Shown: positions 38,640 to 50,042 of the stretch, piece after piece
Position numbering within the stretch: the stretch's first letter is position 1
How the letters are laid out: the number at the start of each line of letters is the position of its first letter
From: Candidatus Spongiisociaceae bacterium
Lineage (GTDB): Bacteria; Actinomycetota; Acidimicrobiia; Spongiisociales; Spongiisociaceae
NCBI GenBank assembly: GCA_965219685.1
Contig: CBDCOH010000002.1
Span: 2,432,001-2,496,000 of the forward strand
Direction: 5' to 3'
DNA length: 64,000 bases
Program-made: the position numbers and the translations under genes
The notes under the pieces: model-generated
What the model saw: the letters and a program-made list of their open reading frames with translations, nothing else
Told to the model about the DNA's origin: nothing
Database searches by the model: none

Positions 38640-40645
38640 CTCACCCCCCCGATGGCTACCGGGACCAGGTTGGCTCTCCACAGGTGCTCCTCGACCTCGT
38701 CGCGGAAGTGGCGGAGCAGCGAGACCACCGGTGACACCGCCGAGGGTCCGAGAGCGCAGATCGTGGTCATGGCCGGTGGCCAGCGCAGGCCCGGCGAGAT
38801 GTTGTCGGACACGTCCAGGAGCAGGTCGGCGTCCACGGGACGTCCCTGCCCGTCCATCACCCTCCGCAGGATCATGTCCAGCCACACGGTCCCCTCCCGG
38901 CAGGGAGTGCACTGGCCGCAGGACTCGTGGGCGAAGAAACGGACCAGGCGCTCGGCGGCCGCCACCATGTCGGTCGTCTCGTCCATGACGATCACCGCTC
39001 CCGAGCCGGTCATCGAGCCGAGGCCGTCGATGGCCTCCTTGGTCACCTCTGTGTCCAGGTGCAGTTCCGGCACGAACCACGGCGAGGAGGCCCCGCCCGG
39101 GACCCACGCCTTCAGCCTGTTCCCGTCCCGGATCCCGCCGGCCAGGTCGAATATCAGGTCGCGCCACGAGAGACCCTCGACGATCTCGTAGTTGCCCGGC
39201 CGGTTGACATGACCGGAGATCGAACACATGCGGCGTCCGGGCGAGCCGCCCGGGCCGATCGCCGCGTAGGCCGCCCCTCCGTTGTTGATGATCCACGGAA
39301 CATTGGCGAGGGTCTCCACGTTGTTGACGATGGTGGGCATCATGTAAAGGCCCTTCGCCGCCGGGAAGTAGGGCGGCTTCAGCCGGGGCTCGCCCCGACG
39401 GCCCTCCAGGCTGTTGAGCAGGCCGGTCTCCTCTCCGCAGATGTAGGCGCCGGCCCCGAGGTGTACGGTGAGCTCGAGGTCGTAGCCGGACCCGAGGATG
39501 TCGCGGCCCAGGTACCCGGCCTCGTACGCCTCCTCCACCGCGGTCCTGACCCGGCGCGCCGCCTTCGGATACTCACCCCGGACATATATGAACGCGTGGT
39601 GGACCTCGCTTGCGTAGGAGGAGATGATCACGCCCTCGACCATCTGGTGGGGATCGCGTTCCATCAGTTGGCGGTCCTTGAATGTCCCCGGCTCGGACTC
39701 GTCGGCGTTCACGACCAGATAGGACGGGCGGGCGGGAGCGAGGAAACCCCACTTGACACCCGCCGGGAAACCGGCCCCTCCGCGGCCGCGGAGCATGGAG
39801 CCCTTCACCTCGGCCGTGATCTCCCCCGGGTCCATGCCGGGGTCGCCCAGGACCTTCCGCAATGCCGAGTACCCGCCGGTCGCCTCGTAGGTGAACAGGG
39901 TGTTGCTGGTACCGGGATGCTCGTTCATCCGGGCGGTCAGGATCATCGGCGCGTCCCCGTTGCCGGAGGTCGGGACAGAGTCGTCGACGGGCGTAGGCCC
40001 GGCCGAAGGAAACGCCACCTCGGTCCCGAGCGGCGAGAAGGAGGGAACCGGCCCGGCGACCCCCACCGGGTCGGGGATCGCCCAGGGGAAGGAGGTGCGA
40101 CTCCCGAAACGAGCCTGCAGGTCATCGCCCGATACCGACTCGGGGCGATCAGATCGCAACCATCGCACCAGGTCCCGGGCCTTCTCCGGTGTCACCCCCT
40201 CCACGAACTCGTAGTTCACCTGGACGACGGGCGCCGCCCCGCAGGCGCCGATGCACTCGACGTGTTCGGGGGAGACCAGGCCGTCGGCGTCGGTGTGGCC
40301 GGAGGGTGTCCCCGCCTCGTCCTCCACCGCGTGCAGGACGTCGTCGGAGCCGCCCAGCCAGCATGAGATGGATGTGCACACCGACACCAGGTAGCGACCC
40401 ACCGGGCTCCGCTTGTACATCGTGTAGAAGCTGGCCACCGCCGACACCTGCGCCGGCGTCACGCCCACCAGTTCCGCCACCTTGCGCATGCCGTCGTCCG
40501 TGAGGCGATCGTTCCCCTGATCGAGGTCCTCGCGCATCGCTATGTACAGGAGCGGCATCATGGCGGAGCGGCGTTCGGGATACGCGGAGAGGACCGCGAG
40601 GGCACGTTGTTCCGCCACGGCCGACCAGGTGTAGGGCATATCCAC
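38636..40645 (-). CDS. nuoE-nuoF: Fused NADH-quinone oxidoreductase subunits E and F
   Basis: NuoE motifs (CTSISC, ECIGAC) and NuoF motifs (GRGGAGFP, NADESEPG, GAGAYICGEET, ESCGQCTPCREG) in one 669-aa frame. Confidence 0.9.
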   Translation of the reverse strand: MDMPYTWSAVAEQRALAVLSAYPERRSAMMPLLYIAMREDLDQGNDRLTDDGMRKVAELVGVTPAQVSAVASFYTMYKRSPVGRYLVSVCTSISCWLGGSDDVLHAVEDEAGTPSGHTDADGLVSPEHVECIGACGAAPVVQVNYEFVEGVTPEKARDLVRWLRSDRPESVSGDDLQARFGSRTSFPWAIPDPVGVAGPVPSFSPLGTEVAFPSAGPTPVDDSVPTSGNGDAPMILTARMNEHPGTSNTLFTYEATGGYSALRKVLGDPGMDPGEITAEVKGSMLRGRGGAGFPAGVKWGFLAPARPSYLVVNADESEPGTFKDRQLMERDPHQMVEGVIISSYASEVHHAFIYVRGEYPKAARRVRTAVEEAYEAGYLGRDILGSGYDLELTVHLGAGAYICGEETGLLNSLEGRRGEPRLKPPYFPAAKGLYMMPTIVNNVETLANVPWIINNGGAAYAAIGPGGSPGRRMCSISGHVNRPGNYEIVEGLSWRDLIFDLAGGIRDGNRLKAWVPGGASSPWFVPELHLDTEVTKEAIDGLGSMTGSGAVIVMDETTDMVAAAERLVRFFAHESCGQCTPCREGTVWLDMILRRVMDGQGRPVDADLLLDVSDNISPGLRWPPAMTTICALGPSAVSPVVSLLRHFRDEVEEHLWRANLVPVAIGGVR

Positions 40646-46863: not shown

Positions 46864-48462
46864 ATGCGCCCCGTATACAGGACCGAGTTGACCCCCCTGT
46901 CCTTCCTCGAGCGCTCCTCGCTCGTGTACCCGGACAAGACGGCGATGGTGGACGGTGACCGGCGGATCACCTACCGGGAGATGGCCGATCAGGCTACCCG
47001 CCTGGCCAACGCCCTGGCAGCCTCCGGGATCGGACCGGGCGACCGGGTGGCCTTCCTCTGCCCGAACATCCCCGAGATGCTGCTGGCCCACTTCGCAGTC
47101 CCGCTGATCGGGGCAGTTCTCGTGGCGGTCAACACCCGCCTGTCCCCCCTGGAGGTCCGCTACATCCTCAGACATTCGGGATGCAAGATGCTGGTCGGGG
47201 AGACGGAGTTGCTGGCGCCCCTCGCCGGGGTGATAGACGATCTCCCGGAACTCCGCGAAGTGGTCTCGGTCGACCGCTCGGGGGCCGGGACCGGATACCC
47301 GACCACGCCGTACCGGCATTTCCTGGCCCGAGGGTCGGATCGTCAACTCCCGTGGACTGTGGACGATGAGGAGCGCACCATCTCGATCAACTACACGTCG
47401 GGAACCACCGGGCGGCCGAAAGGGGTCATGTACACGCACCGCGGGGCCTACCTGAACGCTCTCGGGGAGATCATCCACTCCCGACACTCACCGCGTTCCG
47501 TCTACCTGTGGACGCTTCCCATGTTCCACTGCAACGGCTGGTGCACCACCTGGGGCGTCACGGCGATCGGCGGGACCCACGTATGCCTGCCGCTCATCGA
47601 CCCGGCCGCCATATGGTCGCTCATCGACTCGCAGGGAGTCACCCACTTCAACGCGGCGCCGACCGTACTGATCAGCCTGGTGAACGCGCCCGAAGCGCAC
47701 CCCTTCCCCCGACCGGTGACCATCACCACCGGCGGAGCGCCGCCCAGCCCCACCCTGGTCGAGGCCTTGGAGGAACTCGGGGCGGAGATCGTCCACCTGT
47801 ACGGGCTGACGGAGACCTACGGACCCCACACCGTCTGCGAACTCCAGCCCGGTGTCGAGGACATGCCGGTCACGGAAAGAGCCGCCTTCATGGCTCGCCA
47901 GGGTGTGTCCTACATCATCGCCGACCCCATACGCGTGGTCGATGATGAGATGCAGAACGTCGCGACGGACGCGACCGCCATGGGCGAGGTGGTCATGAGG
48001 GGCAACAACGTGATGAAGGGCTACTTCGAGAGTCCGGAAGCCACCGGCGAGGCCTTCCGGGGCGGTTTCTTCCACTCCGGCGACATCGCCGTATGGCACC
48101 CCGACGGCTACATAGACCTCCGGGACCGCTCGAAGGACATCATCATCTCGGGTGGCGAGAACATATCCACGATCGAAGTCGAGAGGGCGATCGCCAACCA
48201 CCCGGCGGTCCTCGAGTGCGCGGTGGTGGCGGTCCCGCACGAGCGCTGGGGAGAACGTCCCAAGGCCTTCGTGGTCCTCAAGTCCGGCCAGAGCGCAGGG
48301 CCAGGGGAGATCATCGAACATGTGAGAGGGCGCCTGGCCCGCTTCAAGGCGCCGGACTCGGTGGAACTGGTCGAGGCGCTTCCCAAGACCTCGACCGGGA
48401 AGATCCAGAAATTCGTCCTCCGGGACAAGGAGTGGGAGGGCTGGAACCGCCGGATCAACTGA
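46864..48462 (+). CDS. Acyl-CoA synthetase (AMP-binding family)
   Basis: LTPLSFLERS, YTSGTTGRPKGV, LPMFHCNGW, YGLTETYG, ISGGENIS, PKTSTGKIQK. Confidence 0.93.
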   Translation: MRPVYRTELTPLSFLERSSLVYPDKTAMVDGDRRITYREMADQATRLANALAASGIGPGDRVAFLCPNIPEMLLAHFAVPLIGAVLVAVNTRLSPLEVRYILRHSGCKMLVGETELLAPLAGVIDDLPELREVVSVDRSGAGTGYPTTPYRHFLARGSDRQLPWTVDDEERTISINYTSGTTGRPKGVMYTHRGAYLNALGEIIHSRHSPRSVYLWTLPMFHCNGWCTTWGVTAIGGTHVCLPLIDPAAIWSLIDSQGVTHFNAAPTVLISLVNAPEAHPFPRPVTITTGGAPPSPTLVEALEELGAEIVHLYGLTETYGPHTVCELQPGVEDMPVTERAAFMARQGVSYIIADPIRVVDDEMQNVATDATAMGEVVMRGNNVMKGYFESPEATGEAFRGGFFHSGDIAVWHPDGYIDLRDRSKDIIISGGENISTIEVERAIANHPAVLECAVVAVPHERWGERPKAFVVLKSGQSAGPGEIIEHVRGRLARFKAPDSVELVEALPKTSTGKIQKFVLRDKEWEGWNRRIN

Positions 48463-48576: not shown

Positions 48577-48641
48577 GGGCGGAAAACGACAAACCCCGAG
48601 TGAGCCTCTCAGCCCTCTCGGGGTTGCCGTTCGTCTCGCCC
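48577..48641 (-). terminator. Intrinsic terminator hairpin (possibly bidirectional)
   Basis: Minus strand: AACGGCAACCCCGAG...CTCGGGGTTTGTCGTT, ending in a short T-tract. Confidence 0.65.
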
Positions 48642-49008
48642 GCACCGCTGCCTGAGCACCGGTCCGGCCAAGCCGTCGGAAGCACAGCCCTGAAGCTCGC
48701 TCCCTCCGCCACTCGTCGGCCTGTGGCAGCGCTACCACCTGCTTCCGGGTTGCGGTCTCCGTCGGGAACCGGAGTCCCCGCCGGAAGTGCGTTCCCCTCC
48801 TGGATGCATCGCTGCAACCGCTCAGGTCCCGCCGGGTCCTTCTCGTTCGGCGACCGGAGCCGCTTCCTGATCCGAGCCCTTGCACCCCGCCGAGAGACAT
48901 CGCTGCCGCTCCGCAGAGCGGACCTTTCCTGACTCAACGGCCCGGGTACCGGAGCACCCGTACCACTGATCCTGGTCCGGTCGCCGGTCGGGTTTCCCCT
49001 ACCGGTAT
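48580..49008 (-). ncRNA. Candidate ~430-nt structured non-coding RNA (possibly Ms1/6S-like)
   Basis: Bounded by a promoter and a terminator; no credible ORF; several stable hairpins with GAAA and UCCG loops; 5'/3' complementarity. Confidence 0.6.
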
Positions 49009-49014
49009 GTAGGA

Positions 49015-49043
49015 AAAGTACGCCCTTCGGGGACGGATAGCAA
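49015..49043 (-). promoter_or_regulatory. Sigma70-type promoter TTGCTA-N17-TACTTT
   Basis: Plus-strand tagcaa (49038-49043) and aaagta (49015-49020) are exactly 17 nt apart; an AT-rich tract lies upstream. Confidence 0.7.
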
Positions 49044-49164
49044 GGCTAGGGACCCCAAATATTTCGCGGCTCACCGATTCTTTTCGCGATTGTGGAACGT
49101 CGGCCCGATGCGACAGTTCGCGGAACCCGTCTTTCGGGATAAGCCGCAAGGGAGCACTGGCTTC

Positions 49165-49186
49165 TGTCACGAGTGACCCGTATAGT
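49165..49186 (+). promoter_or_regulatory. PafBC/RecA-NDp-like DNA-damage promoter TGTCAC-N10-TATAGT (leaderless)
   Basis: Same geometry as the mycobacterial TGTCGG-N10-TANNNT motif; ATG follows 7 nt after the -10. Confidence 0.65.
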
Positions 49187-49193
49187 TACAGCC

Positions 49194-50042
49194 ATGTCAT
49201 TAGCCACCAGGACCGATCAGTTACTCGACCGAACTCGAGCGGAGGCCTGCGGCCACGCCGTTGGCGAGACTACCCCTGAACCGAGACCCTCGACACTCGA
49301 GACCCTGTCACCGAGCCGTGCCGCCGATTTCAAGCAATGCCCGCGACTGTTCCGCTTCCGCAGCATCGACCGCATTCCGGAGACCCCGTCCACGTACCAG
49401 GCGCGGGGAACCGCGGCGCATCTGGCTCTCGAGCGATTGTTCGACCTTCCAGCAGCGCAACGTACCGCCGGCCGCCTGTTCGACCTGTTTCGAGAAGCCT
49501 GGACGAGCCTTCGCACGGAGACCGAGTACTCGGGACTGTTCGCGACCCTGGAGGAGGAGCGGGCCTGGGGTATCGAGAGCCTGGGGGTGATCGCCAACTA
49601 CCTGACCCTCGAGGACCCGGTATCGATCAGCCCGCTGGACAGCGAACTCGAGATGTCGGAAGAGGTCGGCGACATAATCATCCGCGGGATCCTCGACCGC
49701 CTAGACGAGCGGCCGGACGGCCACCTCGTGATAACCGACTACAAGACCGGCTCCGCTCCCCCCGAACGCTACGCTCTGACGGCTTTCTTCGCTCTCAAGA
49801 TCTACGCCTTGCTGGTCAGGAGCCGGTTCGGAAGGACGCCGGCGGAGATCCGCCTCATGTACCTCGGCAACTCCACGGTCTACTCGATCCCGGTCAGCGA
49901 CCGGATGCTGGACGGTATGGAACGGCAAATCCTGGCTCTGGCCACAGCGATCAGGCGCGCCATCTCCCGGTACGACTTCCCCCCCAGACCATCGGTCCTG
50001 TGCGGTTGGTGCTCGTTCCAGGACATCTGCCCGGCGTGGTGA
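49194..50042 (+). CDS. RecB-family PD-(D/E)XK exonuclease with 4Fe-4S staple
   Basis: LSPSRAADFKQCP, GTAAH, RGILDRLD, DYKTG, CGWCSFQDICP. Confidence 0.88.
   Translation: MSLATRTDQLLDRTRAEACGHAVGETTPEPRPSTLETLSPSRAADFKQCPRLFRFRSIDRIPETPSTYQARGTAAHLALERLFDLPAAQRTAGRLFDLFREAWTSLRTETEYSGLFATLEEERAWGIESLGVIANYLTLEDPVSISPLDSELEMSEEVGDIIIRGILDRLDERPDGHLVITDYKTGSAPPERYALTAFFALKIYALLVRSRFGRTPAEIRLMYLGNSTVYSIPVSDRMLDGMERQILALATAIRRAISRYDFPPRPSVLCGWCSFQDICPAW

Follow-up and report, generated by a model that had tools for sequence, protein, structure and literature searches.

A family of tetraloop-rich non-coding RNAs with a conserved promoter architecture in one order of marine Acidimicrobiia

Main finding

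In the 64,000-nucleotide stretch of Candidatus Spongiisociaceae DNA analysed here (the window), the minus strand carries an independent gene, with a conserved promoter architecture, whose product is a non-coding RNA that is abundant and very stable. The RNA of about 425 nt (48583..49010, minus strand) was delimited from its fold, the lack of a coding signal, metatranscriptome contigs and homologues. It belongs to a family that is absent from Rfam 15 and from the literature searched and that occurs throughout one order of marine Acidimicrobiia. We searched the literature, leaving aside supplementary lists of predicted Ms1 genes, and met no description of such an RNA in Acidimicrobiia. The family is a third abundant RNA family in the phylum beside Ms1 and CoRP and is structurally distinct. 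Our tentative reading, to which we lean, is that this very stable RNA works in trans as a decoy or scaffold that binds a protein multivalently; RNA polymerase counts as one candidate partner among others.

The locus and its promoter

The RNA gene sits in a 710-nt spacer between two genes of the plus strand. One of them (46864..48462, plus strand) encodes an AMP-binding acyl-CoA synthetase-type protein (Pfam AMP-binding, E 8.1e-88), is convergent with the RNA gene and has its stop about 120 nt from the RNA terminator. The other, divergent from the RNA gene, encodes a PD-(D/E)XK nuclease (ORF 49173-50042, plus strand; Pfam PDDEXK_1, E 2.1e-36). By eye, its promoter was located at 49165..49196 of the plus strand (TGTCAC ... 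TATAGT), and the ATG at 49194 is a probable leaderless start. We take this promoter to be of the RecA-NDp-like (DNA-damage) type, and the claim of an earlier sequence-only reading that the RNA diverges from a DNA-damage promoter agrees with this inspection. The order synthetase, spacer (593-710 nt) and nuclease was maintained in eight loci, and the RNA gene stays adjacent to the nuclease gene across families; in other families of the order a bPH_2-SHOCT gene lies 3' of the RNA. The dnaA gene is about 1 Mb away, and no tRNA gene is present between positions 40000 and 58000 of the window, that is, within 9 kb of the RNA gene. A repeat element or mobile DNA was rejected because the sequence is single copy in the genome and occupies a fixed syntenic site. 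A cis-acting leader or riboswitch was likewise rejected, since no gene lies downstream on the RNA strand at this locus and since, where a PH gene does follow in other families, a full terminator and, by eye, an apparent separate -10 element intervene.

Two sequence boxes precede the gene on the minus strand. Box 1, CGCGAAAA (49081..49088), found by sequence and pattern match, lies about 80 nt before the start, and box 2, CGCGAAA (49062..49068), follows exactly 20 nt after it, about 60 nt before the start. Both boxes are invariant in a 14-sequence alignment, and the box-to-box spacing, counted from start to start, is 20 nt in all 17 of 17 distinct family sequences. From box 2 to the -10 hexamer we counted 48 nt by eye. 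A -35-like hexamer, TTGCTA (49038..49043, minus strand), for which relatives have an equally placed TTGnnn (by eye), is separated by a 17-nt spacer from the -10 hexamer TACTTT (49015..49020, minus strand). The latter is of a TAnnnT type that recurs at fixed spacing in relatives; together with the 5' hairpin and the terminator, the -10 element is kept across genera. A consensus promoter scan did not flag the RNA promoter, TACTTT agreeing with TATAAT at three of six positions, and the promoter was called from its conservation and from two RNA-library contigs ending about 5 nt beyond 48998. We infer that the RNA starts at about 49008-49010, some 7 nt after the -10 hexamer, and ends within the T-tract at 48583-48593.

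The fixed place of the boxes about 60 and 80 nt before the start suggests that they are an activator site; we know of no actinobacterial factor motif that matches CGCGAAA. With one mismatch allowed, phased boxes were found at only two places in the genome and a reversed-pattern control gave none. The second place (C2:2114352-2114398) lacks a -10 element at the usual spacing, the terminator signature was not seen there, and it is possibly a decayed copy. Across the class, boxes were present in 128 of 301 genomes versus a single control hit (ten genomes flagged as unpublished are counted in this tally and in the bPH_2-SHOCT and phylum terminator tallies below; their sequences were not used). The box-bearing genomes come mostly from the order of the RNA, where the boxes mostly mark tandem RNA genes. 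The other large box-bearing group is a family with genomes of about 1 Mb and about 30% G+C (55 of 65), in which the boxes stand 200-260 nt upstream of dnaA in all six loci read. The order of the RNA carriers includes sponge- and coral-associated Acidimicrobiia, and the small-genome relatives with boxes before dnaA are marine. Beside the RNA itself, the CGCGAAA boxes point to a conserved DNA element with a putative regulatory role.

Expression

The public runs listed for the spacer numbered 23, mostly sponge, coral and marine metagenomes, and included one RNA library, X20. This metatranscriptome of 7.3 million letters was compared with 3.3 kb covering the RNA and both flanking genes. Eleven contigs were recovered, all within 48699-48998 (word depths of 18-90 for the eight listed), and zero contigs fell on the 2.9 kb of flanking genes. 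Two contigs extend to the point about 5 nt beyond 48998, near the start predicted from the -10 hexamer, and none covers 48583-48698, the last 110 nt or so of the RNA. As only one contig was at least 99% identical to the window, several related strains contribute. In the mixed or DNA runs X16, X18 and X5 the flanking genes were covered through many diverged relatives, and these runs do not inform on the RNA. From the X20 contigs, which are assembled sequences of one small library and do not give strand, exact ends or level, we conclude that the RNA is expressed and abundant. The transcript foreseen by the sequence-only reading was in this way detected, with metatranscriptome contigs on the RNA only.

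Structure of the RNA

The minus-strand sequence 48580-49010 folds with -220.2 kcal/mol as compared to -197.3 +/- 6.5 kcal/mol for dinucleotide shuffles (z -3.53), and one shuffle in 100 folds as well as the window RNA. Together with the conservation across genera, this bears out the proposal that the spacer holds a structured RNA that had escaped annotation and has a promoter and a terminator of its own. The elements that had been listed for it were all found on the minus strand: TTGCTA-N17-TACTTT, the 5' hairpin and the terminator, the hairpins CGGGUGC-UCCG-GUACCCG and CCGCUC-UGCG-GAGCGG, and the hairpin CGGGGAC-UCCG-GUUCCCG nested in CUUCCGG...CCGGAAG. A further proposal, pairing of 5' CCGGACCAGG with 3' CUUGGCCGG, did not hold: the duplex has a z of -0.30, 37% of shuffles do as well, and by eye the pairing is not kept in the 72%-identical relative. 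All structures given here are thermodynamic predictions, for which covariation is solid only in the two end hairpins and, in one genus, in part of the body; ordinary MAFFT was used for alignment.

The 5'-terminal hairpin (48984..49005, minus strand), read from the sequence, is CCGG-UA-GGG-GAAA-CCC-GA-CCGG (CCGGUAGGG-GAAA-CCCGACCGG). The first hairpin is capped by a GNRA or UNCG loop in 22 of 24 distinct genes versus 8 of 480 shuffles, and its outer stems are unrelated in sequence between genes.

In the MFE fold, the body (48640..48980, minus strand) is a series of short, mostly tetraloop-capped hairpins; the fold of the window RNA has nine hairpin loops, eight of which are tetraloops. The body contains three A-GCGA/GCGC-U hairpins (48897-48907, 48805-48816 and 48723-48738, minus strand). 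In an alignment of 14 spacers, three A-GNRA-U hairpins with the differing stems GGCA/UGCC, GGUA/UACC and UGCA/UGCA appear, a covariation judged by eye. For the best-sampled sister genus (10 sequences) RNAalifold predicted 139 pairs, of which seven are compensatory, with many G-C/G-U changes. In the MFE folds of homologues each RNA forms 4-15 hairpin loops, for the most part tetraloops, the commonest being UUCG (44), GAAA (25), GCAA (24), GAGA (18) and GCGA (10). In 19 diverse homologues cUUCGg occurs 49 times, versus 5.3 expected and four occurrences of the reverse complement, and cGCAAg 15 times versus none; CTTCGG is nine-fold enriched over dinucleotide shuffles. The sense strand outfolds the antisense strand in 19 of 19 homologues. 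On this asymmetry of tetraloop words and on the better folding of the sense strand we based the assignment of the RNA strand. The sole enriched linker word was ACCGG (58 versus 18 expected, three-fold), an enrichment that could be merely stem sequence. No consistent long-range helix was found in the predicted folds. A closing duplex, formed between the segment that follows the 5' hairpin and the one that precedes the terminator, was stronger than in 95% of shuffles in only two of 17 homologues and no better in the other 15.

The terminator has the core CCCCGAGAGGGC-loop-GCUCACUCGGGG (48594..48623, minus strand), then UUUGUCGUUUU, and is single copy in the genome. Flanking A-rich/U-rich pairing extends it to about 48583-48632, and the T-rich tail runs to about 48583. 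Its form in the family is CCCCGAG(A/G)GGG ... CYYCCUCGGGG UUUCUCGCG. Among 27 distinct sequences the stem has 12 pairs, eight of them invariant and three with compensatory changes (G-C/A-U, A-U/G-C and C-G/U-A). Of the terminator cells, 93.8% are paired; sliding one strand along the other lowers this to 33-63%. Between the invariant arms lie 4-34 nt, which fits an RNA hairpin and not a DNA-binding site.

Distribution of the family

By BLAST the whole RNA was found in one congener (92% identity) and part of it in another (72%), and the terminator alone was found in other genera. When 80 nuclease-gene loci were searched for the boxes with up to two mismatches, 17 of 19 Acidimicrobiia loci matched and none of 61 Actinomycetia loci did. 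The match at L031, which has two mismatches and is followed by coding-like sequence and no RNA gene, was treated as chance, and two other box-matched loci end at a contig edge. In several loci these RNAs had been missed by an nhmmer profile of the eight family spacers obtained first. In the homologues the boxes are followed, in the 3' direction, by -35 and -10 elements, a 5' hairpin, GNRA- or UUCG-capped hairpins and the terminator. The 26 genes extracted are 155-764 nt long, a five-fold range (one of them is shortened, since an internal match was taken as the terminator). Some loci have two or three RNA genes in tandem, and in two homologues a hairpin unit is repeated in tandem inside the RNA. 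Between families, the conservation of sequence blocks is confined to the two end hairpins.

The terminator signature was present in 18 of 29 genomes of the family and in 95 of 121 genomes of the order, with 1-7 copies mostly in same-strand clusters; both searches had no control hits. In a sample of the phylum it was present in seven of seven genomes within the order and in none of 294 genomes outside it, with two control hits in the whole sample. Two families of the order were without the signature (0 of 13 and 0 of 2 genomes); one of them retains the boxes, so variants exist. With this diagnostic signature the RNA becomes annotatable in hundreds of genomes of mostly uncultured marine, sponge and coral Acidimicrobiia.

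Loss of the RNA in close relatives

Within the same genus the signature is missing in five of eight genomes. In three of these the spacer between synthetase and nuclease genes measures only 38, 92 or 291 nt; in the other two it is unmeasurable, as the contig has no synthetase gene beside the nuclease gene. Another genus includes two genomes with short spacers, one of them with an apparent decayed box. The simpler history is one of repeated loss, because the RNA has its place next to the nuclease gene throughout the order. The RNA is dispensable, being cleanly missing from the same site in congeners. Such natural presence and absence at one site within a genus offers ready-made comparisons.

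Possible functions

The arrangement of fixed ends around variable modules would, we infer, suit a multivalent protein-binding decoy or scaffold more than a single machine with one precise fold or an RNA that pairs through a seed. In the mechanism that we propose, the boxes would bind an activator that sets the timing of RNA synthesis. Transcription would start about 7 nt after the TAnnnT -10 element, and the RNA, opening with a tetraloop-capped hairpin, is predicted to continue as an array of short GC-rich hairpins with UUCG or GNRA caps and to end in the long, near-invariant terminator stem-loop. Nuclease resistance, and with it accumulation of the RNA, could come from the 5' hairpin, from the tetraloop hairpins and from pairing in the terminator, and the repeated hairpin and linker modules might then bind and titrate a protein in trans. 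A decoy or scaffold role would account for constant ends combined with free variation in the number of modules, the length of the RNA and the number of gene copies. Against a decoy it counts that the loops are generic stability motifs (UUCG, GNRA) with no obvious shared recognition motif, that the sole enriched linker word, ACCGG, could be stem sequence, and that the classic sponge partners CsrA and Hfq are missing from the genome. If the partner were a protein other than RNA polymerase, the family would define a new regulator of the sponge type in a phylum that lacks both CsrA and Hfq.

An RNA polymerase partner would make the RNA the order's functional counterpart of 6S, Ms1 and CoRP, an abundant RNA that binds the core enzyme or the holoenzyme and holds it in reserve. 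This is a serious candidate, even if we think it rather unlikely. The genome has no match to RF00013, no known RNA polymerase-binding RNA family is found at the locus, and the RNA is abundant, 300-430 nt long, non-essential and sometimes duplicated. End hairpins and a rho-independent terminator, features of Ms1 according to PMC4191392, are also seen in this RNA, and the authors of PMC11077062, whose CoRP has approximately 500 nt, expect further dissimilar polymerase-associated RNAs. However, 4-15 hairpin loops are predicted in place of a single long hairpin opened by a central bubble, and the potential for a closing stem exceeds that of 95% of shuffles in only two of 17 homologues. Up to seven copies, a five-fold range of length and internal repeats are likewise unlike 6S and Ms1, the genes of Ms1 synteny are not at the flanks, about 1 Mb separates the gene from dnaA while Ms1 genes mostly lie close to the origin, and none of the 294 genomes from outside the order has the terminator signature. 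Were the partner RNA polymerase after all, the finding would support the proposal of an abundant polymerase-binding RNA in every bacterium. More speculatively, the family might constitute the order's own class of abundant global-regulator RNA, a tetraloop-hairpin array that sequesters RNA polymerase or another central protein and whose synthesis is tied to growth or cell-cycle state by a CGCGAAA-box factor; we would give this combined picture only a minor chance of being right.

It is quite improbable that the RNA is a base-pairing regulator acting on mRNAs through conserved single-stranded stretches. An independent gene with a promoter and terminator of its own, frequent paralogues and, by eye, purine-rich linkers between hairpins would suit such a role, but the families have no conserved block in common beyond the two end hairpins, typical sRNAs with a seed are much shorter and less structured, and Hfq is absent.

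We are equally doubtful that the RNA lacks any function in trans, the locus mattering as DNA or through its transcription, for example with the boxes and the strong promoter organising the region of the divergent nuclease gene, or the RNA being a stable by-product. Such an explanation could draw on the constant place of the gene beside the PD-(D/E)XK nuclease gene across families, on its repeated loss and on the small-genome relatives, where the same boxes precede dnaA and not such an RNA. The tetraloop words are strongly strand-asymmetric, however, which points to selection on the RNA strand; compensatory and G-U changes leave the stems paired, the 5' hairpin persists while its sequence differs, and the 4-34 nt between the terminator arms fit an RNA hairpin.

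A small protein encoded here is highly improbable: the stop-free stretches of 78-142 codons on both strands of the RNA region, which could be cited for it, are expected at 66% G+C and do not keep strand or frame from one close relative to the next, short indels (1-2 nt) are frequent, the variable columns have no three-base period (33/38/46), and G+C is flat over the codon positions of the spacer, unlike that of the flanking gene (about 0.88/0.60/0.44). Comparison of close relatives revealed no conserved ORF in the RNA region. The RNA is non-coding, and the view that ORFs do not explain the region was confirmed by the missing conserved ORF and the flat codon-position G+C.

Comparison with known RNA families

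At gathering score, Rfam 15 gave no match in the 64-kb window or in 13 homologous loci. With E<=10 the region gave three chance-level matches only, to unrelated families and at 15-19 bits far below the cut-offs of 56-126. No known family was therefore recognised, and the sequence-only reading's alternative of a new ncRNA class fits the window and the 13 homologous loci. RNase P RNA, tmRNA and SRP RNA were found elsewhere in the genome and not at the RNA locus, in line with the statement that the RNA is none of these three.

To our knowledge, canonical 6S RNA is missing from Actinomycetota, where no RNA other than Ms1 and CoRP, each confined to a limited clade, is known in this role. In PMC11077062, one abundant RNA polymerase-associated RNA per species is proposed, and further polymerase-binding RNAs unlike 6S and Ms1 are expected to have escaped bioinformatic searches.

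According to PMC4191392, Ms1 RNA measures about 300 nt and folds into a long hairpin, whose central bubble is required for binding the core enzyme, and two short ones close to the ends; it has a rho-independent terminator and is usually encoded near the origin. In PMC9130861, predicted Ms1 homologues are defined by their neighbours, for example a HAD-IB hydrolase/phosphoserine phosphatase on one side and an oxidoreductase, glycoside hydrolase, Fic, PH or regulator gene on the other, and Rfam is said to contain Ms1 candidates. Like Ms1 (MTS2823, scr3559), as portrayed in PMC4191392, the window RNA is an abundant, non-essential, stand-alone actinobacterial RNA; it shares the sigma-70-type promoter, the rho-independent terminator and the presence of a short hairpin close to each end. 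It differs in that no model or sequence match was found (Rfam, the locus and 13 homologous loci), in its AMP-binding and PDDEXK_1 neighbours in place of HAD-IB hydrolase and oxidoreductase, in its predicted hairpin array in place of a long hairpin with a bubble, in its place away from dnaA, and in belonging to a multi-copy, length-variable family. A synteny bridge to Ms1 through the 'PH' neighbour was considered and dropped. Relatives of the bPH_2-SHOCT protein occur in 126 of 251 genomes of the phylum. Thirty bPH_2-SHOCT loci were fetched, of which 26 are from outside the order. The boxes are missing from all of these 26; three match a looser terminator pattern, in no case placed like an RNA gene beside the PH gene, and in the 19 that we inspected the ORF map has no long upstream spacer.

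With 6S the window RNA shares the character of an abundant structured RNA. The 6S model RF00013 had no match in the whole genome, while control genomes responded, so that the 6S niche may be open. In contrast to 6S, the window RNA has no predicted rod-like fold with a central bubble and no closing stem beyond chance, and its length is about double. The results do not support placing the RNA in Ms1 or 6S, and the label 'Ms1/6S-like' of the sequence-only reading was abandoned for want of a model match and in view of the other synteny, the strings of hairpins and the closing potential in only two of 17 homologues.

Described in PMC11077062 as an RNA of about 500 nt with homologues only in Corynebacterium, CoRP is, like the window RNA, a long, abundant, clade-restricted actinobacterial RNA that fits neither 6S nor Ms1. 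The two differ in their surroundings: according to PMC11077062 CoRP lies between tRNA-Gln/Glu genes, whereas the window RNA has no tRNA gene within 9 kb.

The design of the family resembles that of another group. The CsrB and RsmX-Y-Z RNAs combine a conserved upstream activating sequence with a hairpin array, variable modules, tandem paralogues and a conserved terminator. Shared with them are the putative activating sequence some 60-80 nt before the start, the many hairpins, the variable modules, the frequent tandem paralogues and the conserved terminator. The window genome differs in having no CsrA (no PF02599 match) and also no Hfq, so that the classic sponge partners are absent; CsrA or Hfq as the partner was accordingly rejected for this genome. 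The loops are moreover UUCG and GNRA and not GGA motifs, and the upstream element is a direct repeat and not a GacA-type palindrome. At the most general level, the gene corresponds to a stand-alone, intrinsically terminated bacterial sRNA gene: it has its own promoter and its own terminator, holds no ORF, and its transcript was detected.

Empty sites and growth of the RNA family

In five loci extracted from relatives (L014, L015, L176, L178 and L180), the two genes that flank the hairpin-array RNA gene are likewise present, and the spacer between them measures just 38-336 nt. These short-spacer loci are natural empty sites. A degenerate copy of the CGCGAAA box, which occurs as phased boxes upstream of the RNA start, is still present in the L014 spacer. 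Where the RNA gene is found, its hairpin module can be repeated in tandem: the homologs at L024 and L027 contain perfect or near-perfect internal repeats, with a 39-nt unit occurring approximately seven times in the second half (read on the RNA strand) of the 764-nt gene at L024 and a 53-nt unit occurring three times in the 540-nt gene at L027. This RNA family grows through module duplication.

Genes neighboring the RNA

A promoter of the RecA-independent DNA-damage type appears to serve the divergent PD-(D/E)XK nuclease gene. Its putative elements, TGTCAC and, after a spacer, TATAGT, lie on the plus strand within window positions 49165-49196. Translation appears to begin at a leaderless ATG at 49194, whereas the mechanical ORF listing places the start 21 nt further upstream, at a GTG at 49173. 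A sister-genus locus visibly shares this arrangement of promoter and leaderless ATG. At four loci from other families (L021, L023, L027 and L029), the nuclease gene is followed by genes for DUF488 and UvrD-helicase proteins, and a gene for a membrane protein with bPH_2 and SHOCT domains, seemingly leaderless with its own -10 element, lies downstream of the RNA. No match to the bPH_2 + SHOCT protein was found in the host genome.

Phased boxes at other sites

Elsewhere in the host genome, phased CGCGAAA boxes occur at one site only, outside the window (contig C2, 2114352-2114398, plus strand; locus L094, 1481-1527), where three boxes spaced 20 nt apart lie within a spacer of ~300 nt between convergent genes for a carbon-nitrogen hydrolase and an ABC-ATPase. 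A -10 element at the usual spacing is absent at L094 and the terminator signature of the RNA family was not seen there; the site may therefore be a copy, now decayed, of the promoter that serves the RNA gene. The host's small second contig, C1 (30,458 bases; 59% G+C vs 65% for the chromosome), may represent a plasmid, phage or contamination.

Both boxes, again 20 nt apart, recur at loci L117-L142 in relatives of the same class with genomes of ~1 Mb and ~30% G+C. They were matched in 55 of the 65 small genomes sampled, in 54 of these 55 as a single occurrence, and in all six loci read the boxes precede dnaA by 200-260 nt. Some dnaA-linked loci may carry a short terminator-like hairpin between the boxes and dnaA.
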